Source of the DNA: an uncultured delta proteobacterium
GTDB taxonomy: Bacteria > Desulfobacterota > Syntrophobacteria > Syntrophobacterales > Syntrophobacteraceae
DNA length: 64,000 bases
Reading direction: 5' to 3'
Assembly (NCBI GenBank): GCA_963808625.1
Contig: CAWEHK010000051.1
Coordinates: forward strand, 97,425 to 161,424
Both the position numbers and the translations under genes were made by a program. The notes under the pieces are model-generated. The model was not told the DNA's origin, ran no database searches, and saw only the letters and a program-made list of their open reading frames with translations. Shown in pieces: positions 7,964 through 30,590 of this stretch (position 1 is the first letter of the stretch; every line of letters begins with the position of its first letter).

Positions 7964-8039
7964 TGGTGGCGGGGCCCAGAATTGAACTGGGGACACGAGG
8001 ATTTTCAGTCCACTGCTCTACCGACTGAGCTACCCCGCC
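7964..8039 (-). tRNA. tRNA-Phe (GAA)
   Basis: GGCGGGGTAGCTCAGTCGGTAGAGCAGTGGACTGAAAATCCTCGTGTCCCCAGTTCAATTCTGGGCCCCGCCACCA; 76 nt, CCA encoded. Confidence 0.97.
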
Positions 8040-8210: not shown

Positions 8211-11027
8211 ATGTCCCATGTGATTTTTCGCTTCGTCCTGCTGGCGCTGATCTCATTGAGCGGCTTGATCCAGACCGGCATCGCAAACGCCTCTAACGCT
8301 GCAGCCCAAGAGTCGCGTGTTCCTTCAGGAGATGAAGTTCCTCCCACGGTAACCAGGTTGTCTCCCCTTGCCATCGCTGCCATACCACCGGCAGGTCAGC
8401 ATCTGGTGCGGCCCCGCGAAGGGGTCATCGAGCGCGGACTGCGCAAACAAGGGAAAATCGTCCCCGGTATGACTCCCGACCAAATCCGCTCCGCGGTGAA
8501 GGATTATTATGATCGTTTTTCCAAGGAGTCGAGCACCTGGGTCTCGCCGGAAATTCAGGAACGGGCTCTGCAACGGCAGGCGGAATTAGGGCATGCCCAA
8601 CGGTCAGGAATGAGTCGCGAGGCCCTTCCTGCGTCCTTGGCGGTCCAGCCTGTTACTGCAGCCATCCTGGCACTCGCCGTGGATTTTGGCGGGACCGATA
8701 AGTTCAACTATTGGGCAACGTCAGGAAAAGTGTGCGCCAAGACGTCGGTGACTACCTCCGGTCCCTCACGGGGCCTGATTCCTCATCCCGGGCCACGCGA
8801 TAACAACACCATCTGGTATGCTCCTGCGACTACTGCTAACGCCAAATTCTACGAAAAGCTCATCTTCGGTTATGAGGGTGTCGGCCGGGTGCGCCGCGAT
8901 CTCCGCGACCCCGTCGATGGCAAACGCGGGATCAACCTCTCCGGCTATACCGTCCAGGACTATTACGACCATATGGCCGGCAAGGGGAATGTCCTTTTGA
9001 CCGGAAGGGTGGAAGGCTGGGTCACCGTCGACCACAGCGAAGGCTACTATGGCGCGCCCTATTGCGAGCAAAAACATGATGGCGGAGGGCTCGACCCCAC
9101 CGGGCAGCTCGTCCCCACCGGGCAGCTCGTTGTGGACGCCCTGGACAAGTTCATGGCGGCCCACCTGGACTATTACTTTGACACCAGCCCCACTGCTTTC
9201 TGGAAACAGTTCGACGCCAATCAGGATGGTGTTGTGGATTCTCTGTGGATCATTCACGCCGGCGTTGGTCAGGAAAGCGGAGGGGGAGCGCAAGGAGATT
9301 TTGCCATCTGGAGTCAGAGCTATGATTTGCGTAAATACACCGCTTATCCTCAGTGGAAGAATGGATACAAGGTCTACGAGGGCGATCCCGATACCACCGC
9401 CGACGACATCGTTGTCGGTCCCTATACCATGCAGCCGGAAAACACCGATTTGGGAGCGCTGGTTGAAGAATTTGGCCATAACTTCTTCGGGCTGCCGGAT
9501 CTTTACACGATCGATGTGGAGAACTCCGTCGGTTTCTGGAGTATCATGGCCGCCGGGACATACGGTGGTTGGCTGGGAGGCGCTACTCCCGTGGGCATGC
9601 CGCTCTGGTTTCGCATGATCGCTCAATGCGGCGACCAACCCTGTAACTGGCAGGAGCCCATGCTCTCGCTCCCATACAATAGTTCCGCCAGAAAGGTTTC
9701 CATCGGGCAGCTTGAGAGCACTCCCGAAGGCGTCTACAAGGGTATCAAGATCGATCTCCCCGATGATGTGGATCCTGGGCTGGTGAAGAACCTGGCAGGG
9801 ACTGGTAAGGGAGCTCACAGTGGCTCAGGCCGGAACAACATCGATATTACCCTCGACCGAAAAATCTGTATCTCCAAGAAAGCCGGCGCCCGCCTATCCT
9901 TTGATGCTTTCTGGGATCTCGAAGAGGATCGTGACTACGGGTATGTGATGGTGCATGACGGCACGGACTGGATATTCCTCGATGACAATGACACTGTCAT
10001 GCGAAAGACCAACCCGTACGGGAACAATCTTGCTCAGGGACTAACCGGTTCCGGCAACCAGAAACTGCGCTTCAACCTCGCCGCCTACCGAGGCAAGACC
10101 ATCACGCTCCGTCTGCGATACAAAACCGATGCCTCCAAGACCGGACCCGGATGGTGGGTGGATAACCTCAGATTGGATGGCAAATCCCTTGATCAGTTTG
10201 AAGAGGCCGTGCCACCTTCCGCCTTTTCCGGGTGGCTTAATTCCACCCCGGGCTGGCGCGTCGTTCCCCAGTACCAGTCCTATGCCAATTACTATTTGAT
10301 CGAGTGGCGGACGAACACCCGCTATGATCGTATGGTGAAAACGGCCTATGTCAAGAATATCGACGACGGGTACGAATGGCAGGTCGAGCGCATACCCTAC
10401 AATATTCCCGGGGCGGTCCTCTATTACGCCAATATGCGTTATTGCGTCTCCGATTATCGCGGGACATCCTATCTGGAGAGCAACCTGTCTGACGCTCCCA
10501 GCATCGGCCCCAAGCACCCCTTGCTGGTTGTAGACATGAATTATGGACCTCTTCGACGCGACGACAACGGATCTGTTTTCGACGCCCGTATCGCCAGCTA
10601 CGATGCCGCGCTGACGCTTCAGCCCACAAAGGCCTTCACCATTACCCAGATCGACCTGGGAGAAAGTATACTCGAAGGTCCGTGGCATTTCCCATCGAAG
10701 CCCGCGATCAGGAAATTCGACGATGCCAAAGGCTATTATGCCGGTCTTTATGCCGGAACGCCATGCAGCGAGTCTTACTGTCTTGCCAATGAAGGCGGCA
10801 GTGCCGTGATTCCGGCATTGGGCAAATACACTACCAGGATCACCCACTACGATGGCACTCCTTTTCCCGAGTTGTATGGCAAAACCGTCGAGTTGAATGG
10901 GACAAAATACCCAGGACTTAAATTGGGCAGCGGTAACCCTGGGGATAGCAAGCTCCAGTGCGGCGTGACGATCAAACTTCTCAGTTCCGACGGCCCTACG
11001 GCAAAACTCAGCATCAACAGCCAGTAG
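8211..11027 (+). CDS. Secreted immune inhibitor A-like (peptidase M6) metalloprotease, variant zinc motif
   Basis: Signal peptide; IIHAGVGQE.GGG..AIWS, YTMQPE, EEFGHNFFGLPDLY, WSIMAAG, WDLEEDRDYGYV, YYLIEWR. Confidence 0.85.
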   Translation: MSHVIFRFVLLALISLSGLIQTGIANASNAAAQESRVPSGDEVPPTVTRLSPLAIAAIPPAGQHLVRPREGVIERGLRKQGKIVPGMTPDQIRSAVKDYYDRFSKESSTWVSPEIQERALQRQAELGHAQRSGMSREALPASLAVQPVTAAILALAVDFGGTDKFNYWATSGKVCAKTSVTTSGPSRGLIPHPGPRDNNTIWYAPATTANAKFYEKLIFGYEGVGRVRRDLRDPVDGKRGINLSGYTVQDYYDHMAGKGNVLLTGRVEGWVTVDHSEGYYGAPYCEQKHDGGGLDPTGQLVPTGQLVVDALDKFMAAHLDYYFDTSPTAFWKQFDANQDGVVDSLWIIHAGVGQESGGGAQGDFAIWSQSYDLRKYTAYPQWKNGYKVYEGDPDTTADDIVVGPYTMQPENTDLGALVEEFGHNFFGLPDLYTIDVENSVGFWSIMAAGTYGGWLGGATPVGMPLWFRMIAQCGDQPCNWQEPMLSLPYNSSARKVSIGQLESTPEGVYKGIKIDLPDDVDPGLVKNLAGTGKGAHSGSGRNNIDITLDRKICISKKAGARLSFDAFWDLEEDRDYGYVMVHDGTDWIFLDDNDTVMRKTNPYGNNLAQGLTGSGNQKLRFNLAAYRGKTITLRLRYKTDASKTGPGWWVDNLRLDGKSLDQFEEAVPPSAFSGWLNSTPGWRVVPQYQSYANYYLIEWRTNTRYDRMVKTAYVKNIDDGYEWQVERIPYNIPGAVLYYANMRYCVSDYRGTSYLESNLSDAPSIGPKHPLLVVDMNYGPLRRDDNGSVFDARIASYDAALTLQPTKAFTITQIDLGESILEGPWHFPSKPAIRKFDDAKGYYAGLYAGTPCSESYCLANEGGSAVIPALGKYTTRITHYDGTPFPELYGKTVELNGTKYPGLKLGSGNPGDSKLQCGVTIKLLSSDGPTAKLSINSQ

Positions 11028-11474
11028 AGCTCATCGCCACACCTTCGAGAAATGCGAGGCTCTCCACCCTGCTCCCGTCGAACATGCGCCTTAGTGCAGC
11101 TCAGCAAAATAAAGTGTCCATTATCCTGGATCGTCTATTCCGGCAATCTCCTAGCCGGAATCCACAAGAGCTTCCTGGATACCGGCTAAAAACATCCCGG
11201 TATGACGAAGGGAAATCCGGACACTCAATTCTGCGACGCAGTACTTAGAGCAGCTCAGCACCAATGAGTGCCCGAATTCCAGTCGTCATGGCCACAAAAG
11301 CGGGCTTTCCCAGGCTCTCCTGCTAAATGGACGCTTTATTTTGCCGTCAAGTACTCAGACTAACAAGGCAAAGATCGTTAGAAGGTAAAATCCGAAATTC
11401 GAATAGCGAAATCCAAGCGGGGATGTTCAGCGATCGCTTGTGGGTCCCGACCGACGCAAAGGGTGAAGCCGCAC

Positions 11475-11514
11475 AAAAAAGGGGGGAGCCGGAATGGCTC
11501 CCCCCTCATTTTTT
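11475..11514. terminator. Bidirectional intrinsic terminator
   Basis: AAAAAA GGGGGGAGCC-loop-GGCTCCCCCC then a T-run; between convergent genes. Confidence 0.75.
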
Positions 11515-11568
11515 GATCATGCTCCTCTCGGAAGGTTGCAGGCCCACCGAGAAAAATTCAGCGCAATC

Positions 11569-12672
11569 TTATCGTTTACCTCTTTCTTCATTCGGAAACC
11601 CGGTATCCCACTTGATGTATACGGGCCCTTTGACGTACTTGCCGGCAGTGCTCGCATGGGTGCCACCCTTATCCTGGTAAGTTATCCCATCAAGGGTGAT
11701 CTTCGTATCGAGCAGGCCGAGCAACGGGCTTTCTTTACTGCCCGGGCAGTAGTTGTTGCTCGCCAGACCCTGCACCCGCATCCGCGCGGCACTGGTATGC
11801 AACCGGTTAATGTTGAAAGGTTTGATCTTGCCGGTGTCCTGAGGAATCCTGAAGGAATCCAGGGAAGCTTCGATGAAGCAGCTAAAGCACTGGTGGAGCC
11901 CGGTGAACTTGATTTCATTGTAGTTCCAGATGGTAAACGTCGCCTTGGTTTTCGTGGAACCAGCTCCATCCTGCTTCAGGTCCTGAATGCAGGGGATAAG
12001 GGTCAGATCACTCTGACTAGTGGCGCTCTCTGCCGGAAAGTCGATCACCAGGTAACTGGGGCAGGCGTCATAACCGACCGCATCTTGATAGCCGCCATTC
12101 AGCAAGAGAGTTCCCCCCGTGCCGACCGGATTGCCGCGCGGCACATTGGCGGCGAAACGATACGCATTGTATTCCCAGGCGCTGCCGTTGGCAAAGTCAA
12201 CGATAATGGCCTCACCCTTGAGAGAGTTCCAGGAAATCTGGTTCTGGGCCTCGGCATCGACCGCCCAGCACTTCAGGATCCCCTCATTACCCTGTTCAAA
12301 AGGCGCTATCGGTGGGCTTTTCGCGTAACTCACATCCCACAGGTGCTCTCCCGTACTAGCTTTGAAAACGGCTGGCTGGCCGCTCGTCAGCCTAAACTGG
12401 AAGTCGGTGTTGACGCAGCCATTTCTTGTAGTACCGGTCACAGGATCCGGATTCAGGTCCTTGTATTCCCAGTAGCATTTTACATTTACGGCCGAACTAT
12501 ACGAATTGTAGATGGCAATGTAAGTGTCCTGGGTACCCGTCGTGATGATTTTGGGCCAGATCAGCAAGCTTCCCTGTTTGGTGGTATCCGTAACCGTCTG
12601 GGCAAGGCACCATGAACTCAATACCGCAATCGAAAAAGCCATGACCAAAGTCACGAGCGTGCACTTTTTCAT
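11569..12672 (-). CDS. Cys-rich secreted protein, paralog P1 (unknown family)
   Basis: AAGGAGG RBS, signal peptide, TTKQGSLLIWPKI, KCYW, LKCWAV, YDACP, LIPCIQD, IWNYNE, QCFSC. Confidence 0.8.
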   Translation of the reverse strand: MKKCTLVTLVMAFSIAVLSSWCLAQTVTDTTKQGSLLIWPKIITTGTQDTYIAIYNSYSSAVNVKCYWEYKDLNPDPVTGTTRNGCVNTDFQFRLTSGQPAVFKASTGEHLWDVSYAKSPPIAPFEQGNEGILKCWAVDAEAQNQISWNSLKGEAIIVDFANGSAWEYNAYRFAANVPRGNPVGTGGTLLLNGGYQDAVGYDACPSYLVIDFPAESATSQSDLTLIPCIQDLKQDGAGSTKTKATFTIWNYNEIKFTGLHQCFSCFIEASLDSFRIPQDTGKIKPFNINRLHTSAARMRVQGLASNNYCPGSKESPLLGLLDTKITLDGITYQDKGGTHASTAGKYVKGPVYIKWDTGFPNEERGKR

Positions 12673-12744
12673 ACTCTTACCTCCTTATCATGTTGTCGCA
12701 ATGCCAAATGGTAGCGATCACTTCGGCATCAATAGACACCTCGC

Positions 12745-13885
12745 CTAATTCACAGATACCGTAATGGCGGGGACACCCTTACAAGCGTTTCCGTTTGTCG
12801 TCCACTCACCAATGCCAGTCGGGGTTACCGCTGTTATCGGTCCCAAGAAGCCGTTGAATCTCTTAACGATAACCCCAACCGCAGGATATGCGATGTAACC
12901 TGCCGGCAGGAGGCATTCCGTGCCGCCTGCGTAGGGACAGGTCGATGGCACAAACGGCGTTGCCGTAAACGCCCCGGCAGAGGTGGATTGGACACTCTTA
13001 AAGTAGGGAGCGGCGGCAAGGGAATCTGCGAAGAAGCAGCTCAGACAAAGAGCGCTGCTGCCGCGGCCAACATCTTGCTCGTTTTCATTTCGACTTGGGG
13101 CATCGAACTTGAGAACGGTCGGACCGCCATCCTGCGTGAAGTCCTGTTTGGTGGGAGCGATCGCCACATAATTGTCCACACTGCCGGTATAGGTCTGGTC
13201 TGTAGGGTTCGGCGTCTGCCTGAGATAATCAAAGATGAGAGCGGCCGGGGCTGAATCATAGTTGCCGGCATCGCCGCTCAACTGGAGCACTCCCGGGGTC
13301 GTCCCAACCTGGGTGAGCGCGGGTGCGTTAGCCGCAAAACGCCACGCACTGTAGGTAGCAACGCCGACTCCAAAGGGTGGCAGGGGCGTTCCTGGCGGTG
13401 CGACATAATATTGCCATTGCCGCAACAGGGTCGCCTCACCGGTAAGCTGGTTATATGACATTCTGGGTAGTTGCACCACTGTCTTCCTGACTGGTTACCC
13501 AACACTTGGCTTCGGCCACATTGCCGAAGTCTATTCCGGAATCCAGAACATTGTCGCCATCCAGATCTGTCCCGTCACTGGCCTTGAAGGTTATCGGCTG
13601 GTTGGGAGTGAGGATAAAACATTGCTCAACCCGGTCGCATGCATCTTTGAGCACAAAAACACAGCATACATTAACCGAATAATAATTGTCATTGCCGATG
13701 GTGATCAGGGTTTCCCACGATTCCGTCCCAAAGTTAGGGTAAACTGTAGTATCGGTCCTGATCAAGGGAAATATCAGCAGGCTACCCTTCTTTGACGTAT
13801 TCGCGACGGTTCCCGCAAGGCAAGGTCCACCGACTGTCACAAGCAGAAAAGCTATGAGCAAACTCACGAGCATGTATTTCTTCAT
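12745..13885 (-). CDS. Cys-rich secreted protein, paralog P2 (divergent; frameshift near 13455)
   Basis: AAGGAGG RBS, MKKYML signal, NTSKKGSLLIFPLI, LTPNQPITFKASDG, KCWV, then SYNQLTGEA, KQDFTQD, RNENE, CLSC in the next frame. Confidence 0.75.
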
Positions 13886-14837
13886 ACTCCTTCCTCCTTT
13901 GAACTTGTTCAGTGATAATTGCATCAGAGGTTAACCCCTCTATGAAAAGGTTTCCACATCAGAAAACTTATGCCGCGAACAACCACCCCCCTTCCGATCT
14001 GTCAATTCAACGCCATCCTTGCTGAATTCCCAGGAGCACCCCTCTGAATCCGCCCCATCCTCCCCTGGCCTGGCAATGAACCCAACCTGTGCTCAGCTCC
14101 AGAAACCACAACAAAGCAACAACTAATGTCCTCGGCATCCCGACAAAAACCCAAAGCCCCCTCTCGGCCTGTCCGGAGCAGATCCCCGCACAGGACACAA
14201 GATTGGCTCGGGATACCGATAGAACTACGACTAACGATTGTCCGTACTTGCCTGAGCTACTTCACTAATTGCGCCATCTTTCACAGAAGCTCCCCGTATG
14301 TCAAGCAAAATCTGCATGCGACCTTACAGGACCGGGTTGCAGGTTGAACATCGCTCCCCTGACAGCAGCCATGGAACGCACCGATAACGGTATGCAAAGG
14401 AGAGCGCAACCACGGGGACGGCACCAAACGTTATTCCGACCTGGCGGCCATGACTTCACTCGACCCCATGATCAACGCTGAAAAAGGCGATATTTTTATC
14501 CTGTGCTGTGACCCTTGAGCCTACAGCATTGTATATAAAGCCAACCCGCTCCCACGTCGCCCACACGCGATGCGGAGCCCCACAGTCGGTTACAAACTCC
14601 GCTGGCGGCGCGATTTGATGGGGGTCATACCACTTCTGACCCGCTGGGAGATTATCATTTAGGGGCTTGCTACAATTCTTTGTAAAGTTTCCTTTTATCA
14701 TGATCAATTGTATAGTACCATTCTCCAGTACGATTAAAGTGCTCAACGGTGATAGCAATCCATCTTCCGATTCGTCTCCAGCGCGATGTGGATTGCTTTA
14801 TGAGGCAGGTTGGACAAGAGACAGGGGGAACACCGCA

Positions 14838-17800
14838 ATGCGTTGGAATTTCAGTCGTCTGTTTCTGCTTTTCTCTTTCGTCACCATGTTCGGATTGGTC
14901 GGGCGAGCCCATGCTGTTATCGGTCTCGTGGATACTCCGGGCTATGCGCGTTGGGTCATGGTTTCGGGACCCTACGCCTATGTGGCGGATGACTACAGCG
15001 GTCTGCAGGTCATTGATGTCAGCAATCCGAAGAAACCAACGATCACCGGTTCGGTGGACACCCCGGGCAATGCGAAAAAGGTTTTTGTTGCCGGCTCTTC
15101 CGCTTACGTGGCCGATTACTGGGACGGCTTCCACATCGTGGACATCAGCAACCCTGCATCCCCTGCCCTGGTCGCTTCTCTCTCCTTGCCGGACGCCGCC
15201 GAAGGGGTCTTTGTGTCCGGTTCCTATGCTTACGTCGCCGATGGCACCTACGGCCTCAAGGTTATTGACGTCAGCAACTCCCAGCGCCCCCACTGTCGTC
15301 GGTAGCGCGAACACTTCCGGCTATGCTCTGGATGTCAAGGTGTCGGGGTCCTATGCCTATGTGGCAGACGGACCCGGCGGTCTTCAGGTTATCGATATTT
15401 CGAAACGCGCTCAGCCCAAGATTGTGGGTGCCGCAGCCACGCCCGGCGATGCTAAGGGAGTAAGCGTAGCCTGGCCTTACGCCTATATCGCCGACGATGC
15501 TCAAGGCATTCAGGTCATCGATATTACGGAAGCCAGCAACCCAAAGATTGTCGGCTCCCTCCTCACCTCAGGCACGTGTCAGGCGGTATTTCTGGTCTAT
15601 CCCCTGCTCTTTGTGGCCGCCGATGTGGATGGGCTGAGGGTGGTTGACGTCAGCAATCCAAAAGCCCCGGTCCTGCTGGGCACGGAATTTACCTCGGGTT
15701 ACGCCTTAGGCGTTTATGTTACCGAGAGCTTGGCCTACATGGCAGACTACGACATTGGTCTCGAACTTATCGACGTCAGGAAATACTTTAGCCACATTGT
15801 CGCCACCGTCGATACCCCGGGCAATGCTTTGGATGTGAAAGTATCCGGTTCGTACGCTTATGTGGCCGATGACGCCGGAGGTCTCCAGGTGATCGATGTG
15901 GGAAAGCCTGCCGCTCCGACCATTGTTGGCTCCCTCGCGACAACGGGAAATGCGCAGGGAATCCATGTGTCCGGGTCTTATGCCTATGTCGCTGAGGACC
16001 TTGCCGGTCTTCAGGTGATCAACATCGATACCCCCCAAAGCCCGTTCGCCGTGGGTTCGATCACGCTACCCGGACAGGCCAGGGGGGTCTTCGTCTCGGG
16101 CTCCTGCGCCTATGTCGCGGCAGGGTCGGACGGTGGCCTCCAGGTGATCGACGTCGGAGATCCTGAAAATCCCGTTGTGATCGGGGCCGTCGCCACGCCC
16201 GGTTCCGCGGAAAGCGTTCGTGTGGTCGGTTCTCAGGCGTTTGTAGCCGATGGCTCGGCCGGTGGTCTGCAGGTAATTGACGTGAATAACCCGCAAAGCC
16301 CAACCATCATCGGTTCTCTGAGCACCTGGGGCACTTGTTATGAGCTTGATGTGTCCGGCACTCTGGCTTATGTGGCTGACGGGCTTAACGGCCTGACCGT
16401 TGTCGATCTCGGGGACCTCAACAACCCGATCCCGATCGGCGGCTATGAGACCGACAGCAGCGCCAGTGGAATCCGTGTCGCGGGCCTCTATGCTTTCCTG
16501 GCCACCACCACGGACGGTCTGAGCATTTTCGACATCAGCGAGCCCGCTGAACCTTTCCCAATCGTTACTGTCAACACTCCCGGTACGGCCTACAAGGTGG
16601 AGCTGTCCGGATCGTACGGCTTCATTGCGGATGGTGTTAAAGGCCTCCAGGTCATCGCGCTGTCGAATTTTCCGTGTGACCAGCAGCCCCCTGAAATTCC
16701 ATCGAGCATTTCCTATCCTGCCAGCGATGGCGACGGGATCTTCACAGTAAGCTGGCCGTCCGCACTCCGGGCCGAAACCTATAACGTCCAGCGCGCCAAT
16801 AATTCTCTTTTTACAGGCGCCATCTCCGTCTACGACGGACCCGCCACTCTTTTTCAGCAATCCAACCTATTTACCGGGACCTTTTACTATCGCGTGAGAG
16901 CCCTGAATGATTGCGGCGCGAGCGGCTGGAAAACCGGCGGCGCTATCAGCGTCACGTCCTTTCCACCCAGACCGAACAGTATCAGCTACGCAGCCAGCAG
17001 TTGCGGAGGGAGTCTGGCGATCACCTGGACATCCTCGGTTGGGGCAACCGCCTATTTAGTGCAGCGGGCCTCCAACATATCGTTTACCGACGCCATCGAT
17101 CGCTATGCCGGTCCCAGCACCTCCTTCACCGATTCGTCCCTGACTTACGGCACCTACTATTATCGCGTCAGGGCAAGCAATGGCTACGGCACAAGTCCCT
17201 GGAAAACAGGAGGCGCCACGACGGTGCCGCCTCCCCCCGCCGTTCCGGCGAGCATCACCTACCCCGCCAAGACCTGTAGCGGTAACCTCACGGTAACGTG
17301 GGCACTTGCGAGCGGGGCAACCGGTTACACCCTCCAGCGCGCAACCAAGGTCGACTTCAGCGATGCGACCCAAGTCTACCTCGGAGCGTCCAACTCTTAC
17401 ACGGAGCCCGGTCTTTCTCCCGGCACTTACTATTACCGGGTACAGGCCAACAATAGTTGCGGCAGCAGTACCTGGAAGAGCGGCTCGGCCAGCGTGGTCC
17501 CTCCCGCTCCCCCGGCCCCGGCCAGCATCTCCTACCCGGCATCAAGCTGCGGCGGCAACTTTACGGTCAGTTGGGCAGCGGTCACCGATGCGGTCTCCTA
17601 TACCCTGCAGCGCGATACTTCCGCTGCGTTCACAAGCCCCGTTGAGAATACGACGAGCTCACTTTCCTACAGCCAGGGGGCACTTTCCGCAGGGAGTTAT
17701 TTTTTCCGGGTGCGTGCGAATACCGCCTGCGGCAGCGGAGCATGGCAAACCGGCCCTGCTAGTGCGGTCCTGGCGGCACCCCCGGCCCCGGATGGCATCA

Positions 17801-20800
17801 CCTATCCCGGCAGCAGCTGCAACGGAAACTTTACCGTAACCTGGCCGGGTGTGGCCGAAGCAACTGCTTACGTGCTGCAGCGGGCAACCAATGCCTCCTT
17901 TACCGACGCCGCCCAGATTTACAGCGGCGCCGCGACGTCTTACTCCCAGGGCGCCCTCGATCCGGGCGTCTATTATTATCGGGTTCAAGGAAGCAACACC
18001 TGCGGCTCCGGCACTTGGAAGGCCGGCGCCGCGGTTACCGTGACCACCACTCCCCCGACTCCGGGAACCCTCACCTACCCCGCCAAGACCTGTAGCGGCA
18101 ACCTCACGGTAGCGTGGACTCTTGCGAGCGGGGCAACCGGTTACACCCTCCAGCGTGCAACCACTGATGCCTTCAGCGATGCGACCCAAGTTTATCTCGG
18201 AGCGTCCAACTCTTACACCGAGCCCAGTCTTGCTCCCGGCACCTACTATTACCGGGTGCAGGCAAACAACGGCTGCGGCAGCAGTGCCTGGAAAAACGGC
18301 GTGGCCACCGTGGTCACTCCTGCCCCCCCGGCCCCGGGCAGCATCTCCTACCCGGCATCAAGCTGCGGCGGCAACTTTACGGTGAGTTGGGCGGCGGTCA
18401 CCGATGCGGTCTCCTATACCTTGCAGCGCGATACTTCCGCTGCGTTCTCGAGCCCGGTCGAGAATACGACGACCTCAACTTCCTTCAACCAGGGGGCTCT
18501 TTCTGCGGGTAGTTATTTTTTCCGGGTACGAGCGAATACCGTCTGCGGCAGCGGAGCATGGCAAACCGGCCCTGCCGTTGCGGTCCTTGCGGCACCTCCT
18601 GCCCCGGCCGGCATCACTTATCCCGGCAGCAGCTGCGACGGAAACTTTACCGTAACCTGGCAGTCTGTGGCCGAAGCAACTTCTTACGTGCTGCAAAGGG
18701 CAACCAATGCCGACGTTTACCGACGCCGCCCGGTCTATACCGGCACCGCGACGTCCTACTTATCAGGCCGCCCTCGATCCGGCCGTCTATTATTACCGGG
18801 TTCGAGGAAGCAACACCTGTGGCACCGGCAGCTGGAAGGCTGGCGCCGCGGTTACCGTGACCACCAACCCTCCGACTCCGGGAAGCTCCCACCTACCCTT
18901 CGGACAACTGTGGCGGAAGTTACACGGTTAGCTGGTCCTCGGCTTCCGGGGCAACCGGCTACACCCTGCAGCGGGCAAAGAATGCCTCGTTCACCGATCC
19001 CATTACCGTTTATAGTGGTTCCAATCTCTCTTATACGGAATCGAGTGTTGCCACAGGAATTTACTATTACCGGCTTCAGGCCAGTAATCCGTGCGGCAGC
19101 AGCGCTTGGAAAAGCGGCCCGGCCATCACGGTAGTAGCTGCTACTCCCCCGCAGCCCGCCGGCATCGACTATCCGGCAAGCAATTGTGGTGGGACCTTTA
19201 CCGTCAGTTGGCCGGCCGCAAGCGGCGCCACCAGTTACAACCTCCAACGGGCCACCAACGCTTCCTTCACTTCTCCCATTTCGGTATATACCGGCGCGAC
19301 AAATTCCTTCAATCAGACCGGCCTGGCCAGCGGCACCTATTACTATCGCGTCCAGGCCTCCAATAGTTGCGGCGCCGGTGACTGGCAAACAGGCTCCGCC
19401 ATCATCGTTTCCGGTGCGCCTTCCGCTCCGGCCATACCTCTCCTATCCGGTGAGCGTTTGCGGGAGTAGCCTTAGCGTCAGTTGGGCGGCAGTTGCCGGC
19501 GCTTCAAGCTATACCCTGCAGCGGGACACCGACGCCCTCTTCACTCACCCGACTCTGGTTTATGAAGGCTCCTTGACTTCCACCACCGACACCCCGGGTG
19601 CCGGCACCTTCTATTACCGGGTGAGAGCAAACGGCGCCTGCGGCGCGAGCAATTGGACGGTCGGCGTCGGCACCGCCGTGACGCCGGTGGTGGGAACCCC
19701 GGAGACAATCAGTTATCCTTCCACCAGTTGTACCGGGAATTTCACCGTGAGCTGGTCCGCCGTGAACGGCACCGCCTATTACGCACTCGAAAGGTCTGCC
19801 AACGCATCGTTTTCACCTTCCACACAGCTCGCGACGGGACCCCAAACCTCTTACAATCAGGCAGGCCTAGCCGCCGGGACCTATTACTATCGGGTGCGGG
19901 CTTACAATTGTGGCGCCGGTGGATGGAAGGCAGGTGGCCCCATTACCGTGGGGGCATCCCAGCCTCCTGCCGCTCCCACCACGATATCCTACCCGGCAAG
20001 CAGCGCTACGGGGAGTTTTACCGTGACTTGGTCGGCCGTCAGTGAGGCTGCCGGTTACACGCTCGAGCGGGACACCAGTGATTTGTTTCCCAAGCCGGTT
20101 CAGGTTTATAGCGGAACGGCAACGTTTCCTATGACCAGCCTAAGTTGGCGGCCGGGGAAGTACTACTACCGCGTGCGGGCCAATAGCGACTGCGGCAGCA
20201 GTGATTGGCTCTCCGGCAAAAAGGTGGTGGTCGCCAGCAACCAGCCTCCGGACCTGTCCGGTCCGCCCATCGGGACCGCGACGGGAAAAACGGGTATTTC
20301 CTATAAATTCACCGGACAGGCAACCGATCCCGAAGGCAATCGCGATCAGATACCGCTTTGATTGGGGAGATGGCAGCCGTGACCTCCTGGTCGTCATTCG
20401 GCTTTCCGCGGTTACAAGTGGCACAAATGGCTTGTACCGGGTGCTTATTGTGTCAAAGTCCAGGCCAAGGACGGCAACGGGGCGCTCAGCGATTGGTCTG
20501 ACTGCGCCACGCTCAAGGTGACGAGCCGCCCGCCCGCTGCAGCCTGCTCCTCCGACCGGTCCGACCACCGGGGTCAAGAATACCTCCTACACCTTTACCG
20601 GTACCAGGCAGACGCGGACCCCGACGGCGACCCGGTCCAGTACCGCTTCTCATGGGGCGACGGGACAACCAACTCATCCTGGTCCTCGTCGCCGTCTCGG
20701 GCCCACAAGTGGGCCAAGGCGAACTCCTACTGCGTGAAAGTACAGGCACGGGATGATAAGGGCGTGACCTCCAAGTGGTCCGCGTGCGCAAACATTGAGA

Positions 20801-20811
20801 TTGGTAATTGA
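14838..20811 (+). CDS. ~1990-aa secreted surface protein: 14 LVIVD repeats, 13 FN3 domains, 2 PKD-like domains (several frameshifts)
   Basis: Signal MRWNF..AHA; 14 YAYVAD..GLQVIDVS-type repeats; 13 ISYP..FTVSW..YYYRVRA repeats; two YRF(D/S)WGDG..YCVKVQA units; homology continues across ORF breaks. Confidence 0.85.
17257..18888 (+). repeat. Tandem duplication of a three-FN3 unit (period 816 bp)
   Basis: ACCTACCCCGCCAAGACCTGTAGC at 17257 and 18073; FN3 domains 3-5 highly similar to 6-8 at DNA level. Confidence 0.85.
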
Positions 20812-20850
20812 CGACGCCCTTGCGGCAAAAACTGTGAGGGCCCTCTGATT

Positions 20851-21248
20851 TTTTTCTTGACAATTGCTTTCGTCTGCCCTAGTTAGTTAACAAACGCCGG
20901 TGGGGAATTGCATCGTGTCCTCGTTAATGAAATTAGAGCAAGTTGAGTGGGGTCAAGACTTATACGAAGCTTGTGCCGGGTTTTTTCCGAGTATACATTA
21001 GTGGATCTTTTTGGCTAACAATCTAAATATAAGGGGATATTTCGTAGCGCAGCAACAGGCAGTAACCACGGTTAAGGTCCAGCAGGCATATTGCTTTTTT
21101 TAATTGATGATTGAGATTAGGTAGAGAGGAGGTGAGATCCACTGCGCCCTGAGCAGGTGGAGTTTTGGTTTGACTGACAGGTGCTTGAAGACAGCCATTG
21201 TTGTTGTGGTAAGTTATCTTGGAATTTTTAGGCAGGAGGAAAGAGAGA
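20851..21248 (+). promoter_or_regulatory. Putative promoter and long leader of P3, with an orphan SD element at 21124-21137
   Basis: TTTTTCTTGACAATTGCTTT and GAGAGGAGGTGAGATCCA, both conserved upstream of P4. Confidence 0.5.
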
Positions 21249-22401
21249 ATGTTTAAAAAAGCAGTGTTTTTCTCATTGGCAGTTGTGTGGTTGCTTGTGG
21301 GGGTCACCACCATGGCCTCTGCTGCACAGAACGTTGGGAACACTTCTCAGAAAGGCAGTGTTCTGATTTTCCCGAAGATTGACGTTACGCCGGGGAGGGA
21401 CACGATCATTCAGCATCAGCAATGATTACCCCCGTGGTGTCATGATCAAATGCTACTGGGTGAACTATGACCAGGAAATTCAGGATTTCATGTTCCTCGT
21501 TACGATCACTCAGCCGGTGTGGTTCCGGGCGTCCGACGGATTGGGCACGGGCAGCTACAACAACGACCCGACCACTCAGCCCGTCACCGTTCCGCCCTTT
21601 TTCCCTGAGAGCGTTGGCGAATTGAAGTGCTGGGCGGTCAATTTCGAAGGGACCCAGCAAATTAGCTGGAATCATCTGTCAGGCAACGCCATGGTTCTCG
21701 ATTACATCAATCAAACAGCGTATGAATACAATTCGGTTAATTTCACGGCTCGCGGAGTTGCCCTGGCCGGCACGGTTCGTCCCGCAGGCACGATCAATCT
21801 GAGCGGCGCGGCCAACCAGTACGATGCGTGCCCGCAGTATCTGGTGTTCAATTTCTTCACTTATGATCCAACGGTGGGCAGCACCAGGGTCGTGGACATC
21901 GACGGTCAAGGCGCTGCGGTGAGGTTTAACAAGACCGACCTTACGCTGGTTCCCTGCAAGCAGGACCTGCGCCAGGATCGCGTTCCCACTTGCACGAAGG
22001 CCAAGTTTGACATCTGGAACGAAAATGAAACCAAGTACACCGGCGCCTACCAGTGCCTGAAGTGCTGGTTTGAAGGCTACCTGAACGACATCGGCACGGC
22101 CTTGGGGCATCCCGGCGGGTTTGGTGGTGAAAAGTTCACCTATCCGGGTCTGCACACCACCATGGGACGCGCGCGGGTGACCGGCGTTGCCAGTACGGTG
22201 TGTAACGGTAAGTACCCGTGTTCCACCCAGGTCAATTCGCCATTGCTTGGCATTACCTCGACCCAGGTTGAATTCCTCACTCCGGGCCAAAAGATGGAGC
22301 TGATTGCGGCCGAAGCTGTTGGCGCGGGGACGTACACGGCTGACCCCGTCAGTATCCAGTGGGATATTCAGCGGGAGCCGGAAGAGGTTTCCGGAAGGTA
22401 G
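21249..22401 (+). CDS. Cys-rich secreted protein, paralog P3 (frameshift near 21410)
   Basis: AGGAGG RBS, signal peptide, NTSQKGSVLIFPKI, KCYW, LKCWAV, YDACP, LVPCKQDLRQD, IWNENETKYTGAYQCLKC. Confidence 0.8.
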
Positions 22402-22438
22402 AATTCGTTCTTCTTGAGCTCTAATCAATGGTAATGCT

Positions 22439-22472
22439 AGGGGGGCAAGGAGGTGTCCTTGCTCCCCTTTCT
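22439..22472 (+). terminator. Intrinsic terminator after P3
   Basis: GGGGGCAAGGA-GGTG-TCCTTGCTCCCC followed by TTT. Confidence 0.65.
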
Positions 22473-22804
22473 CTTGTGGCGACTCTGCCGAGTCCGGAAG
22501 AGTGAGACAGCAAGCGGGAAAAGACGAAAGTGTTTCAACCAAACTCTACTCCTGCGCGTGTTGCTTCGTGTCCTTGATTACGGCACCAGCCCCTGACCGT
22601 TATGCAGGCAGTCGCTGTGCAGTACACAAACGAATTCTTCCATACGAGGTTTTGCTTTATGTTGAGGAAGATTTTTTCACTGGTTAGCAGCAACCAGCCC
22701 GATCAGCAAATCGCTTACCGATCACCGGCCCGGCGGAAGAATCCGGCGCCTGTTCGTGCCCCCGCAGAGGGCCTCGACTGCAACTGCATGGTGCCTCGCT
22801 GACG

Positions 22805-23562
22805 ATGCTCCTCATTTTGGGCCTGTTCCTTCCTGCATGCTTGCAGGCAGCCCAGGACGAAGTGAAAGTCTTGCGTGAGCGCGCAACCACCCTCTGGGAA
22901 GCCCGCGTGAAGGGTGACTGGGCGACGATTTTTGACTATCTTATCCGCCGAGGAAAAGAAAGGGAGGGACGAAGGAACAGTATGTCCAATTCACCAAGGA
23001 AAAGGGGCCGTTCCGTTACCTTTCATACAAGCTTGGGGACGTTGATGTCGATGGTGATGTTGGTTGGGTAAAGACAACCTATGATATGGAACCGATGCAG
23101 TTTCCGGGGCTGCCCCCGCATCATATGGACACGGTACAGTTGTGGGAAAAACGTGACGGCAACTGGTACCCGATTCCGAAGGACCGACAAGAAGATGTGC
23201 CGCGTCTTCCGCCTCGCCTGCGACCGCTCAAGGAAGAGAACGCCGTGATGGCACGCGCGAACGAGTTCTGGCAGGCCCGTGAGAAAGGCGACTATGGGAC
23301 GGTCTATCAGTTCTGCGCTCCCGCCTTCCGCGAGAAGGTTGCAAAGGAAGAGTTTCTGAGCAAGAAGGCCCTTAATATTTACGTTGGCCACCAAATCCTC
23401 TTTGCAGAGGTGGCGGGCGACCGTGCCAAGGTCAAGGCAACCATTGCATACCGACCGAATGATCCGAGTTTGACCAAGATCGATCCCGCCGAGGAAACCG
23501 TTATGCAGGAATGGATCAAGGTGAAGGACCAGTGGTACCTCGACGTTAAGGAACCGGGGTAA
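22805..23562 (+). CDS. Exported hypothetical protein with two internal repeats, NTF2/SnoaL-like (frameshifted)
   Basis: LRERATTLWEARVKGDWATIFDY vs MARANEFWQAREKGDYGTVYQF; each unit ends W...DGNWY / WIKVKDQWY. Confidence 0.55.
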
Positions 23563-23676
23563 TCACAAACGGAGGCAGCTACATGTCCGGAACCGGCGAT
23601 GCGTGCAATTTACCTTGAATGGCATGACGTCAGTCTCGGGTTCAAGATTCACTAATTTTCGCAGCGGAGAGATCGC

Positions 23677-25100
23677 ATGGAGCGTTTTGTTAGATTTGTG
23701 TTTCACGACCTATTGATCCTTGCAACAGTAGTTTGCCTGGCATCGTGCGCGGGCGTCCAGACCCAACCCTCTAAGCCCGCCCAGGAACAACCGGCCCCAA
23801 AATTTAGACTTTCAGCCTCCGGTTTGGCCGCAACGGGTATGTGGAAATGCACACCGTTGGTCACCGACGTAAATCGCGACGGACACCTGGATATCATCGC
23901 CATTGCGCGCCTCGGTGATGGCGCACACGTCTCGCTTGGAGATGGGAAGGGCAACTGGACGGACTCCTCAGAAGGCCTCAAGATGAAGGGCGGATCCTGT
24001 GGAGGCGGGGTGGCTGTTGGTGACATTAACCGAGACGGTCACCTCGACCTGGTTGTTGCCGACCATTGCAGCGGCGTATATGTCTATCTGTCCGACGGGG
24101 CTGGACACTGGAAGGCAGTCACTGAGGGTCTCTATCCACCTGCTGTGAATGCCAAGGTCCAGGGCACAGGACGAGGAGCTGAAACAGATTTTCATTGGTT
24201 CTGAGGACATCGCTCTTGGCGACATCAATGGGGATGGCTTCCTCGATATCGTGGCTGCGGCTTCGGATCAGGGTGGTTTTTCGGTCTATCTTGGTAATGG
24301 CACGGGTAAGAATTGGAAACTCTGCCAAGGCTAACGGCCTGCCTGATTTGGAAAATCCCGAACCCGAAGACGAGGACAATGCCGGGTGGGCCAACCGGGT
24401 GATACTCCGTGATGTGAACGGAGACGGCCAGCTTGATGTCGTGGCATCATACTACAAGGGACCCAGGGTGTGGCTTGGTGACGGTAAAGGCCACTTCAAG
24501 AGCGTTTCTCAGGGACTTCCTTCGCCGTAATTGGCGGCCTGTACCGCGGGCTGGAGCTCGCAGACATCAATAAAGACGGGCTTTTGGACATCGTTGCGGC
24601 CAACGATGTGAATGGTCCGGAAGGTTTTCTACAACAGCCTGGTGGCTCATGGAATCCGACCGGTGACCTCATGCCGTCCATGCAGAACGGGGCCGTTGGT
24701 ATTGCTGTGGCTGACTTCGATAACGATGGTAACCTTGATCTTGTGGTCGCGCGGCCGCAAGGTAAAGGAGATGGGGAACAATTACGGCCTTTACCTCCTC
24801 CAAGGAGACGGCAGGGGCGGTTTCAAAGAACTGGTGGCAACGAACCTCCCGGCGAAGGGTCTCTCAGTGACCTGGGGAGTAGCCGTGGGCGATGTCAATG
24901 AAGATGGTCTCATTGACTTTGTCGCCGCCACCGGGGGCGCCGTGGCCGGATCAGCCGGTGCCAAACTTCCTCCCCAAGCCAAAACACGCCCTGATACAAA
25001 AGCCAAGAAACCGGTGGAGAAAGAGAAGCCGGCCAGCGATTCGATCGCGGAACTGCCCCTGCCGCGCATGCAGGCATGGGTTAACGAAGGCGTTCATTGA
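23677..25100 (+). CDS. FG-GAP/VCBS repeat beta-propeller lipoprotein (frameshifted)
   Basis: Lipobox LASC; seven D(V/I/F)(N/D)xDGxxD repeats spread over the split ORFs. Confidence 0.8.
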
Positions 25101-25147
25101 GGTCTGGCTCACGTCGCCACTAACTGGAACTGAGGTATCAAGGAACC

Positions 25148-26781
25148 ATGTTCCAACAACATAATTGGCGAAAACTCTTAATCATCTCACTCAGCCTGAT
25201 GGGGGTGCTGGCGGCCACTCTTGCCGGGCTCTCCCATCGGCTGGAGTGGCTCGCCTCCCTGTGCACCGGCTTTGGTGATGGCTGCCGCGAAACGGTCGAC
25301 TTTCAATTGTTGGGCATGCCTGTCTGGCTCTGGGGGGTGATCTATTACCTCCTTGTTTCCTTGCTCCTCTTCCGCGCGTATGCTTTCTCTTCTGGCTCAT
25401 TGCCGCCGGCTTCGGAGTGGAGCTTGGCCTCATGTGGACGATGTTTTCCATGAAGGCCATTTGCGTTTTCTGCCTGGCCAATTTTCTCCTGGTCACCGGC
25501 GATGATGCTTTGCATCCTTGAAAGAGCGCGCATCTGGCAGAGCCTTACCGTGACCTTTGCGCGCCCTGCTGTTTACTGCGGTGATGGTCCCTTATGAGAA
25601 CAGCAATCTCGTTGCCGCAAGAGAAAGGCAGAATCCCGTTGTTGCGGCAATCGTCGCCGGTCAGGAGATTTCCTATGACGAACTCGTGCGCCCCGTGGCC
25701 TCGCGGATTTACGACCTGCAGCAACAGATCTATCACCTTGAACGAGACCTTTTGGACCAGTTGGTTGCGAAGATGGTTCTCGAGAAGGAAGCCGAACGAC
25801 AAGGAAAACCGCTTCAGGAATTGATCAAAGGCTATATCGGTGCGCAAAATATAGCCTGTGGGAGACCAGGAGGTTGACAATTACTATGCGGAAAATCGTG
25901 CTCGTTGGAACGAATGGAAAGGTTCCGAGCAAGAACTCTATGACCCAGATCCGAGCTTACCTTCAGCAGCAAAAGATTCAACAGAGAGTGCTGGAGTATG
26001 CTAAGTCTTTGAATCCGAAGTATGGTGTGGTCATCAATCTTAAGGAGCCCCCGTCGCCAACCATCCAGGTCGCCATTGGAAAGGACGATCCCGTGCTTGG
26101 TCCTGAAAATGCCCCTCTTACCATTGTCGAGTTCTCAGATTACCAGTGTCCGGCCTGCCGGAAAAACCATGAGGTGGTGCGCGAACTCAGGGGCCTCTAC
26201 AAGGAGCGAATCCGATGGATTTTCAAAGACTTCCCCATGCCCGGCCACAAATGGGCCAAGGGTGCGGCCCTGGCTGCACGTTGCGCTGCTGAACAGGGTA
26301 AGTTCTGGCAATACCAGGACATGCTGTTCGCCAGTCAGGATGAACTTTCCCCGGACCGTTTGACTCAGTTCGCCAAGGAGCTCGGGCTGCCGTTGGAACC
26401 CTTCCACTGAATGCCTTGAAGCCAATAGATTTCAGAACAATGTTGAAAGAGAGCGTCGAGGAGGGGAAGAAATTTGGGCTCAATTCCACTCCGACTTTTG
26501 TCATCAACAATCGCCTCGTTTCCGGGGCGCCGCCGCTTGATCGTTTCAAAAAGATTATTGACGAGGAGCTTGAGAAGGCTCGAGAAAAGCAGCTAGGGAA
26601 TGGAAGAGCCGAGCCTGCCTCATTGGCAAACCGTCCCGACAAGATCGAACGGCGGAAAAGACATTTTTTCGACTTTCCCATGGATATAATATTTTTCTTG
26701 ACAGATGCTTTTCTTTCTTATAATTTTACTCACAGCAATGCTGGACTGGGCCAAAACCGAATGGAATCTTACTGGAATTAA
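25148..26781 (+). CDS. VKOR + SurA-N-like helical region + DsbA/thioredoxin fusion (frameshifted; true stop may be TAG at 26594-26596)
   Basis: VKOR loop LCTGFGDGC, LLGMPVWLWG and ICVFC; VVAAIVAGQEISYDEL..LLDQLV; LGPENAPLTIVEFSDYQCPAC, KDFPM, NSTPTFVIN. Confidence 0.75.
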
Positions 26782-27076
26782 TGAGATAAGATTTCACTTT
26801 AACCGTCCTCATCAGAGGGCGTAGCGTAGTGTCAAAAGATGGTTAAGATGTGTGCGGTTCTGAAGTTCGTGCTGCCGGTTTCTAAAGGGGTGCTGCAAGA
26901 GTGTTTGATGCTGGGGAGTTGGCGTCTGCATTGCGGAACTCGGAGAGATCCCCATCGAGAGGAGGTGAGACCCAGGGCCAAAGCAGATAAAAGCTTGGAC
27001 TGAACTGTCTTTAAGTGTACTGATGTGAGATAGTTAATCAGTTACAGGACTTTTATGAAGCAGGAGGAAGGAAAGT
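26692..27076 (+). promoter_or_regulatory. Putative sigma70 promoter and long leader of P4, with an orphan SD at 26957-26970
   Basis: TTGACA 26698-26703 and TATAAT 26719-26724 (spacer only 15 nt); GAGAGGAGGTGAGACCCA. Confidence 0.55.
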
Positions 27077-28238
27077 ATGTTTAGGAAAACGATGGTTTTT
27101 TCTCTGGCAGTCGCGCTGGTGCTGATGGGGCTCTGCACGTATGGCCTCTGCGGCTCAGAATGTGACCAACACGTCTCAGAAAGGCAGTCTGCTGATCTTC
27201 CCCAAGATCGACACCTCTGCGATTGGACGAAAGCGGCTTTTATCGCGACACGATTGTGATGATCGGCAATGACTATTTTACCGAAGTTTGGGTTAAGTGT
27301 TACTGGGTGAACGCCGAGCAGGAAATTCAGGATTTCATGTTCCGCCTGACACCCAACCAGCCGGTTTGGTTCAGGGCCTCCGATGGCGCGGGAACCGGTT
27401 ATTACGATGATATTCAGGCCCCGTCACCGTGCCTCCGTTCTTTGACGGGTTATGGCGTCGTCGGTGAGCTCAAGTGCTGGGCGGTCGATGCCGTGGGCGA
27501 AAACCGAATTTCCTTCAACCACTGTATGGCAACGCCATCATTCTTGATCCCGTGCATGCCGCTGCCTTCGAGTATAACGCATGGGCCTTTACCGCCCGCG
27601 GGGTAGCACTGAACGGCACCGTAGGCACGCGCGGGCACCCTCGTCCTTTCCGGCGCCGACCGCGCTTATGATGCCTGCCCGAGCTATCTTGTTTTCAACT
27701 TTTTCTCCAAGGGCGCCAGCCATCAATCTACCGGATAAGGGCGGCTTTGCAACGTTCGTCAATACCGATCTGACCCTCGTTCCCTGTATCCAGGACCTGC
27801 GCCAGGACCGTGTTCCCACCTGCACCAAGGCCAAGTTCGATATCTGGAACGAGAATGAGACCAAGTACACCGGCGCCTATCAGTGCCTCAAGTGCTGGTT
27901 CGAAGGCTACCTTGGCGATATCGGTAGCTACACCATTGGATACGGCGGCGAGAAGTTCTGGTACAAGAATCTTCACACCACCGCGGGCCGCTTCCGGGTC
28001 GAAGGCATACCTAGCTACGGTGTGCAAGTTCGGTGTAGCGGGTTACCCGTTCGCCAAATGTCCTGTGGGTGCCGGGGTTCGCAGTCCTCTGCTTGGTCTG
28101 ATCAGCACGGAAATCAAGTTTACTTCCGATCCGTATGATGCGCTGGCCGGCACCACCCCGAACACCGCGGGAACGGGCATCGCCTCGACCATTCTGTGGG
28201 ATTATCAGGACGGCACCTCCGGAGGCCCCGGCCAATAG
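27077..28238 (+). CDS. Cys-rich secreted protein, paralog P4 (several frameshifts)
   Basis: AGGAGG RBS, signal, NTSQKGSLLIFPKI, KCYW, LTPNQPVWFRASDG, LKCWAV, YDACP; 41-aa block identical to P3. Confidence 0.8.
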
Positions 28239-28283
28239 TCAGGTTAGACATACCGGATTTGTCGATCCTGAAAACTGGATGTC

Positions 28284-28320
28284 AAGGGGAGAAAGGCTCA
28301 GGCCTTTCTCCCCTTTCTGT
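28284..28320 (+). terminator. Intrinsic terminator after P4
   Basis: AAGGGGAGAAAGG-CTCAGG-CCTTTCTCCCCTT then a T-rich tail. Confidence 0.8.
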
Positions 28321-29791: not shown

Positions 29792-30585
29792 CTAGAGTCC
29801 AAGCATCTCCGCCATATACCAGCGATAGAATTCCTCTCCCCAGAAAACATAAAGCAATGCCCCCGAGGCAAGAAAAGGTCCGAAGGGGAGCATGGTGCCA
29901 AGGCCTTGCCGGCTTCTCCACATGACGATCAGTCCCACTGCGGTCCCGATCAGGGAAGCACTGAGGACCGTAAACACTACTCCCGGTAGACCGAGAAAAG
30001 CTCCGATCATCGCCAGGAGTTTGATATCCCCGCCTCCGAGACCGTCCTTATGTCGCAAATACTGGTACCCAATGGCCACCAGGAAGAAGAACCCGCCCCC
30101 AAGAACGATTCCCAGCGAGGGAGTCCAACCACGAGAGACGCAGGGGAAATGAAAGAAAAGGCAAATCCTACAACCGTTCCGGTAATCGAAAGAACGTCGG
30201 GAATCAGATAGGTATCCAGGTCAATGAAAGTGATAAGGAGGAGCAGGGAGACGAGGACCAACTCGCAAAAGAACTGAGGAGTAAACCCGTAGTGCAAAAA
30301 CAGGAGCAAGGTCAGGACCCCGGTCAGCCCCTCCACCAGAGGATACCGCAATGGAATACGTGCTCCGCAGTGGCGGCATTTTCCTCTCAAGATCAGATAA
30401 CTCAGCAGCGGAATATTGTCATACCAGGCAATGGGATGATTACAGAGTGGACAATGCGACCCCGGGCTGACGATCGATTCTCCACCGGGCAAACGATGAA
30501 TAACAACGTTATAGAAGCTGCCAAGGCAGCAGCCCGCAAAGAACACGAACACTTCCTGGAGACTGGAAGGAATAGCGAAGGACAC
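29792..30585 (-). CDS. pilD: Prepilin peptidase/N-methyltransferase (frameshift near 30125)
   Basis: GSFYNVVIHRLP, SHCPLC, WYDNIPLLSYL.LRGKCRHC, FIDLD, GLGGGDIKL, PFGPFL. Confidence 0.92.
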
Positions 30586-30590
30586 CGGTT

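Follow-up and report, generated by a model that had tools for sequence, protein, structure and literature searches.

What might four paralogous secreted proteins, encoded side by side with other surface proteins between a tRNA-Phe gene and a zinc-ribbon gene of an uncultured delta proteobacterium, build together? The stretch of DNA analysed here (the window) comprises 64,000 nucleotides of contig CAWEHK010000051.1, which is contig C51 of a 4.8-Mb genome that is 85% complete (GCA_963808625.1); its best-matching titled records are Syntrophobacteraceae metagenome-assembled genomes. G, C and L numbers below denote genomes, contigs and loci. Nine genes were confirmed in the interval by six-frame reading and by Pfam, which recovers M6, LVIVD/FN3/PKD, FG-GAP, SurA-N and DsbA domains. 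Their order is M6 protease, P2, P1, an LVIVD/FN3/PKD protein, P3, an exported two-repeat protein (TR), an FG-GAP lipoprotein, a VKOR-like/SurA-N/DsbA fusion and P4. An earlier note had read the set as a candidate disulfide-dependent surface assembly system, and it recognised no named system of this composition. Our answer is that P1–P4 are probably subunits of a multi-subunit surface layer (S-layer) that is distantly related to the NpdA S-layer, with TR and the FG-GAP protein as helpers.

The P proteins belong to a large family with a patchy distribution. A P profile matches 2,835 clusters at 50% identity, 1,102 of them with E≤1e-30, and no match occurs among plasmids or, at the sequence level, in Pfam, NCBIfam or the PDB. 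P is found in Syntrophobacteraceae, Planctomycetota, alpha- and gammaproteobacterial and Acidobacteriota records, and titled records include Phycisphaerae, Isosphaeraceae, Methylobacter, Methylocella, Methylocystis, Beijerinckiaceae, Vicinamibacteraceae and Smithellaceae. It occurs in 9 of 41 relatives, in two of 401 genomes of the phylum (this one included) and in 3 of 121 genomes in the class of G432. About 12 copies, spread over six places, are present in this genome, and about eight of them are at five places outside the locus; the four paralogues of the earlier note are present, but they are only part of the family here. The further copies lie at C8:193584-196122, C21:111115-113603, C23:41516-48896, C41:21138-22088 and C22:55008-55286, and in none of the mapped stretches does a TR, FG-GAP or DsbA match lie next to them. 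The two tandem copies on C8 have nearly identical N-termini and are the highest P scorers on the NpdA-type profile described below (~25 bits). The other P-positive genome among 400 of the phylum, G115, has three arrays (L115, L117, L119) with a dozen or more Cys-richer paralogues, and one array adjoins an FG-GAP gene.

P N-termini are signal-peptide-like when read by eye. Mature P2 has 8 cysteines, a moderate content for paralogues that had been called Cys-rich; six of the eight (66, 135, 204, 228, 262 and 309) are kept in 96–101 of 109 family rows and could form three disulfides. The 150 best representatives of the family comprise 106 stand-alone proteins, 21 tandem forms and 23 with a single module plus extra sequence, and passengers include S8 protease, NIDO, PKD, HYR and IgGFc-binding domains. 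Among the same 150, six are circularly permuted (P0178, P0179, P0206, P0212, P0224 and P0235) and two have inserts of 254 and 776 residues (P0186 and P0231). All permutations and inserts fall at profile position 47/48, which indicates that this loop is permissive, and it may face outward.

The AlphaFold model of P2 (pLDDT 90.3, pTM 0.88) consists of two beta-sandwiches. Residues 32–175 have Thermotoga TM1070 (1nc7) as their top fold match (Z 11.4, root-mean-square deviation (rmsd) 1.8, 106 aligned), and domain 1 also matches Anabaena ASRT (2ii7; Z 6.9, rmsd 3.2, 98 aligned). Foldseek matches of P2 to arrestins were discarded as meaningless (TM ~0.1, rmsd ~24). TM1070 has the fold of the ASRAH superfamily, for which sugar binding is predicted and three families are described, namely solo, amidase-fused and actinobacterial lipoprotein forms, with DUF1362 included (PMC2739507). 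P shares with ASRAH proteins the eight-stranded sandwich of TM1070 topology in domain 1 of the P2 model and a conserved Asn (N56 in P2) where strand 2 ends, and Trp-Pro in strand 1 of P2 is counted as a further likeness. P is unlike them in that the ligand motif SHEshChhN is absent, with neither His nor Cys in strand 2 of P2 and the consensus, in that another sandwich of a different kind is joined to domain 1, an architecture that fits none of the three described families, and in its lack of Pfam and PDB sequence matches.

A link to a characterised S-layer comes from profile comparisons. NpdA is known from Delftia acidovorans Cs1-4 and Paracidovorax citrulli AAC00-1 (PMC3110197, PMC10765051). 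It forms an S-layer, as shown by deletion (PMC10765051), and tubular nanopods, and npdA can occur in two to four copies per genome (PMC3110197). The comparison was made through a proxy, the NpdA-type family, which we infer to represent NpdA itself (WP_011797163), so the link is transitive. The broad P profile A5 matches the first ~100 residues of nine secreted proteins of 480–630 aa in 8 genomes (E 3e-9 to 2e-4). These searches covered 401 genomes from the order of a betaproteobacterial record and 251 from that of a Methylobacter record, with 4 positive in each set; a 44-residue, stop-containing match in G536 was left out. hhalign relates P and NpdA-type profiles with a probability of 96–97% (E 1.6e-9 and 4e-10), and with 92% (E 7e-7, 58 columns) once signal peptides are removed. 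The mature P profile scores 71 of 84 NpdA-type proteins above 15 bits, compared to none of the 84 reversed and none of the 84 shuffled sequences, and in the reverse test the NpdA-type profile matches two P copies in this genome (E 2e-5).

The NpdA-type family includes Ca. Nitrotoga arctica WP_239795478.1, which retrieves the Comamonas odontotermitis 'cell surface protein' WP_224153019.1 (26%, E 4e-27). Both organisms are listed as carriers of npdA orthologues with a gsp cluster upstream (PMC10765051), and the Comamonas gene order is gspE to gspD, a 122-aa gene, WP_224153019.1, a peptidyl-prolyl isomerase (PPIase) and an ABC exporter. The AlphaFold model of an NpdA-type member (pLDDT 88.6) again has TM1070 (1nc7) as its top match (Z 6.0, rmsd 2.5, 105 aligned), which is the sole chain at Z≥5. 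Foldseek returned nothing for this model at E≤0.001, and ESM Atlas matches of NpdA-type P0361 are hypothetical or 'cell surface protein' clusters only. No solved S-layer protein is among the fold matches listed for the P2 and NpdA-type models, which excludes nothing.

The strongest independent support for the link between P and NpdA is a neighbour gene. A one-domain TR homologue lies directly upstream of 8 of the 9 NpdA-type genes (TR profile, E 8e-15 to 3e-5), and the Comamonas upstream gene also matches the TR profile (44.7 bits). gspD is adjacent in just 2 of the 9 NpdA-type loci; the TR-like partner keeps company with the coat gene rather than with gspD. Even P-negative relatives have comparable gene pairs: 5 of 8 fetched one-domain TR homologues (8 of 13 matching genomes were covered) are within two genes of a secreted protein that scores 26–63 bits on the P or the NpdA-type profile. 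These distant members are probably further branches of the same coat superfamily. They are 334–675 aa long and occur beside the one-domain TR homologue and glycosyltransferase/Wzt genes at L171:4625-7721, L176:6745-9721, L172:4723-7451, L174:4545-7243 and L175:6370-9206.

On these profile comparisons, P is a remote homologue and not an orthologue of the NpdA-type family, and this relation speaks against the earlier note's view that the locus resembles no named system. Both families are secreted, signal-peptide-bearing and free of Pfam domains, and they share profile similarity in domain 1, the top fold match (on the NpdA side through the proxy), an adjacent NTF2-like partner gene and the possibility of several copies per genome. 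P is unlike NpdA in its size (~340 aa mature versus 52 kDa for P. citrulli NpdA), its six conserved cysteines, its partner, which has two repeats and is usually downstream, the added FG-GAP propeller, and the lack of an adjacent gsp cluster, PPIase or Wzm; it also has about a dozen paralogues in each genome, and tandem, passenger-fused and circularly permuted forms occur as well. P may work like NpdA, yet it is not a member of that family in the strict sense because full-length orthology, judged on the proxy family, and an adjacent, upstream gsp cluster are missing.

P genes are also the head of a conserved cassette. The genus order P-TR-FG-fusion is kept in G001, G002, G004, G005 and G006, and in G001 and G005 the nearest P genes are upstream on the opposite strand of the cassette. 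BLASTP with pieces of the window alone finds TR and FG-GAP orthologues in planctomycete and proteobacterial loci. Across 68 P loci, searched with profiles built from BLASTP matches and often on short contigs, TR occurs in 20, FG-GAP in 24, either of the two in 25, the DsbA fusion in 8 and M6 in 4. The conserved core of P, TR and FG-GAP is seen in Desulfobacterota-type, Planctomycetota and Proteobacteria records, and linkage of the paralogues to the two-repeat and FG-GAP genes, for which the earlier note had asked as a check, holds across phyla. TR is a single-copy gene in this genome. The two-repeat form occurs in 8 of 41 relatives, once each and always among the 9 that are P-positive, and in the class of G432 it is carried, once each, by the very 3 of 121 genomes that have P, one of which fed the profile; plain counts are given for these co-occurrences because kin are not independent. 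In an alignment TR resembles two NTF2-like repeats, and its matches are weak: NF051431 is below cut-off, and the CaMKII hub and de novo NTF2 proteins are found at E 0.02–0.03.

Other genes accompany the cassette in places. A collagen-repeat gene lies directly 3' of FG-GAP in six cassettes of delta-type and planctomycete records (L053, L055, L056, L057, L063 and L066; e.g., L056:13252-15066 and L063:6785-8698), and L056 also has CBM5/12 modules. In gammaproteobacterial cassettes an M36-like metalloprotease gene follows FG-GAP (L096:6151-8553; also L072, L105 and L111), which parallels the M6 gene here, and L096 and L111 carry two FG-GAP genes. Sigma-54-type response regulator/sensor genes, labelled by clustering, flank the cassette on both sides in L053, L055, L056, L057 and L068.

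VKOR (PF07884) and a DsbA or thioredoxin partner constitute a disulfide-generating pathway. The fusion resembles this pathway in its N-terminal loop Cys pair and membrane CxxC and in its C-terminal DsbA domain with a CPAC motif; it is unlike it in that the VKOR-like part scores 16–18.6 bits against a Pfam cut-off of 27.5 (with a near-full-length model match at this gene in three relatives), in its SurA-N-like spacer, and in being a family-wide, usually single-copy gene with housekeeping surroundings in other genera. A profile of the VKOR region found no VKOR in the PDB. The VKOR redox cysteines (loop pair and CxxC) are kept in the window and in five genus orthologues; they are lost in the cassette copies of L053, L056 and L057, and the domain is absent from the L033 cassette copy. 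Because the fusion occurs in 24 of 24 family genomes, is kept in G003 of the same genus, which has neither P nor TR, and because DsbA is present in 0 of 15 non-delta cassettes (four of which end soon after TR or FG-GAP), it is a family-wide disulfide oxidase that is not dedicated to the cassette. Nearly all of the 24 family copies are full-length, and most are in genomes without P paralogues. In G003 the gene remains beside the zinc-ribbon gene, and in three other genera it sits among housekeeping genes (ispE and prs were recognised by eye). The proposal that the locus has its own oxidative-folding machinery, and with it that of a dedicated disulfide pathway in an anaerobe, is not supported, since the family as a whole shares the oxidase gene. 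The enzyme probably oxidises P among many substrates. A supporting role for the cassette is plausible because DsbA follows FG-GAP in several delta-type cassettes, and because G012 has a second, VKOR-less copy at that place; the loss of VKOR cysteines from the cassette copies of L053, L056 and L057 counts on the same side.

The protease and the long protein were both given central parts in the earlier note, and neither keeps that place. By score (Pfam; TIGR03296 above cut-off) the protease belongs to the M6 family, and it has the catalytic, MAM and VEG domains of immune inhibitor A (InhA); it is unlike InhA in that EEFGH replaces the HExxH zinc motif, both in the window (9500-9560, residues 434–438) and in 5 of 5 orthologues checked. 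The four M6-bearing P loci are all within this genus. The LVIVD/FN3/PKD protein has an open frame of 1,986 aa in G007, is absent from the syntenic loci of G001, G004 and G005, and may be an optional surface adhesin. Both are genus-level extras rather than core parts.

Starting from the observed homology, linkage and co-occurrence of P, TR and FG-GAP, a route of assembly can be proposed. P proteins would be exported by Sec, oxidised in the periplasm by the family-wide fusion and passed through a type II secretion system whose genes lie outside the locus (contig C24 has gspD, E, F and L homologues), and would then form a lattice outside the outer membrane, a mixed S-layer of paralogues. TR could be a chaperone or anchor and the FG-GAP protein a membrane scaffold, and these two single-copy partners would assemble or anchor the coat for all of the ~twelve paralogues. 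Fused, inserted or permuted P members would be displayed by joining the lattice, and this genus would carry the M6 protease and the LVIVD/FN3/PKD protein as optional cargo on its surface. A multi-subunit system at the cell surface, as first supposed, is supported.

P sequences are also present in RNA libraries. In four such libraries, from two studies, contigs match portions of each of the four P genes, and the best pieces are 97–99.7% identical (e.g., at 11827-12210, where 4 of 384 bases differ, and at 21050-21389, with 1 difference and 1 gap in 339). The stretch with which the runs were found held P3 and P4; P1 and P2, which are covered too, lie outside it. RNA contigs show presence in RNA libraries and not level. 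Depth was not used as a measure of expression because the data are contigs, because the search stretch held P3 and P4 and because paralogues of other organisms add up; a ranking with contig depth high over P bins, low or nil over M6, adhesin, TR, FG-GAP and fusion, and even in DNA runs, was set aside.

All nine genes in the row are real. They do not form one operon, as P1 and P2 run on the minus strand and P2, P3 and P4 are each followed by a strong terminator hairpin, which gives several transcription units (Table 1). A sigma-70 promoter scan was at chance (9 seen versus 9.3 expected), and the total terminator count across the scan was likewise at chance level. Open reading frames (ORFs) are intact in M6 and P2 only, and the remaining seven genes can be read only across frameshifts. 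An alternative genetic code was rejected: readthrough of TGA, TAG or TAA leaves the genes unrestored, so the breaks are frameshifts. They are probably assembly errors because orthologues of the broken genes are intact in relatives, because topA and dprA of the same genome are also frame-broken, and because indels near 21412, 27138, 27225, 27417 and 27521 are absent from contigs of related strains. In a rough control across the genome, which counts duplicates and shadow frames, a frame change occurs in 21 of 74 ORF comparisons, including topA and dprA. Downstream (window 30007-32071) are a prepilin-peptidase-like gene and topA, a conserved housekeeping block in which both genes are frameshifted here.

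Table 1. Features of the locus, with positions in the window
Feature	Position	Strand	Remarks
tRNA-Phe	7964..8039	-	left boundary
InhA-like M6 metalloprotease	8211..11027	+	intact ORF; PF05547, PF20773, PF20774; TIGR03296 above cut-off
Terminator-like hairpin 3' of P2	11479..11507	-	12 bp
P2, secreted paralogue	11569..12672	-	367 aa; intact ORF; ASRAH-like plus second beta-sandwich (predicted)
P1, secreted paralogue	12745..13885	-	single frame break near 13480
LVIVD-propeller/FN3-repeat/PKD protein	14838..20811	+	~1,990 aa; ~six frame breaks
P3, secreted paralogue	21249..22401	+	head of conserved cassette; single frame break near 21412
Terminator-like hairpin, P3-TR gap	22439..22468	+	13 bp
TR, exported, two NTF2-like repeats	22805..23562	+	single frame break near 22945
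FG-GAP beta-propeller lipoprotein	23677..25100	+	LASC lipobox; several frame breaks
VKOR-like/SurA-N/DsbA (CPAC) fusion	25148..26600	+	several frame breaks; end approximate
P4, secreted paralogue	27077..28238	+	many frame breaks
Terminator-like hairpin 3' of P4	28284..28315	+	14 bp

Several points weigh against an S-layer of the NpdA kind. The P lattice is a prediction, and ASRAH folds occur in non-lattice proteins too (PMC2739507). Significant similarity between P and NpdA-type proteins spans just 58–92 columns of domain 1, and the forced global alignment, although colinear, has 16% identity. WP_224153019.1, which of the members is closest to the NpdA that was tested, scores 260 bits on the NpdA-type profile but 3.1 bits on that of P, which makes the connection depend on intermediates, and the Z of 6.0 for the NpdA-type model falls in a range that the tool calls possibly generic. 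None of the 68 P loci holds gspD, PPIase or Wzm. G015 lacks a TR match despite its two P genes, and in Beijerinckiaceae-type loci FG-GAP is present and TR is not nearby. Alternatively, P could be a surface-anchoring or sugar-binding module displayed as single molecules, with TR and FG-GAP as a one-to-many sorting or docking system by which stand-alone and passenger-fused P proteins are attached to the envelope, and no lattice. The ASRAH fold of domain 1 with its predicted sugar binding (PMC2739507), the 44 of 150 best representatives that are tandem or passenger-bearing, and the service of one TR to many P genes all agree with such a module; yet the other 106 stand alone without cargo, and those characterised proteins to which P is most closely related make S-layers and have the TR-like neighbour as well. 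We regard this explanation as unlikely.

It is more doubtful still that P polymerises into fibres, tubes or a biofilm matrix, with subunits processed by the protease and the long protein or a collagen as tip or stalk, although the earlier note had named a fibre or matrix among its options. NpdA itself makes tubular nanopods (PMC3110197), six cassettes have the collagen-repeat gene, and P has weak fold matches (Z ~4) to pilin, adhesin and hook-cap sandwiches; these matches, however, are at background level, no pilin leader, lipobox, usher or sortase was reported in the cassette, and M6 is confined to this genus among the 68 loci. That the region is a decaying or chance set of surface genes beside a tRNA, with real frameshifts, seems very improbable. 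Seven of the nine genes are broken, which is apparently denser than in the rough control (27 frame changes in 74 comparisons), and G003 of the same genus is without the cassette. Gene order is nevertheless kept in the genus and across phyla, topA is broken too, and related-strain contigs are free of several of the indels. A multi-subunit S-layer distantly related to NpdA is preferred over these alternatives.

No description of the P family or of the P-TR-FG cassette was found in the literature listings that were searched, although supplementary tables could list members. Term look-up in the accessible text of three S-layer surveys (bioRxiv 2024.05.28.596244, bioRxiv 2025.04.02.646754 and PMC12175726) did not find NpdA, Delftia or Paracidovorax, and their supplementary tables could list a member; the passages of PMC6367495 and PMC10787695 that were available are uninformative on P. 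A wider proposal, which we offer tentatively and with less confidence than the S-layer assignment, is that an ASRAH-fold S-layer superfamily may join NpdA and P across at least four phyla. The P branch would then be a mosaic display platform, in which a genome's single NTF2-repeat protein and single FG-GAP propeller would serve a dozen paralogues plus fused, inserted or permuted subunits in a single disulfide-stabilised lattice, and the NTF2-like partner would be a conserved assembly factor throughout the superfamily.

If P proteins are S-layer subunits, they would provide a candidate coat protein for Syntrophobacteraceae, Phycisphaerae, Methylocella/Methylocystis-type and Methylobacter records, where literature searches found none. 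NpdA would gain a predicted fold family and a partner gene that can be tested in the tractable Delftia. The family would also represent an S-layer from nature in which a permissive loop accommodates inserts of 250–780 residues or circular permutation, which would bear on the display of enzymes and adhesins by coats and on partner contact by syntrophs.

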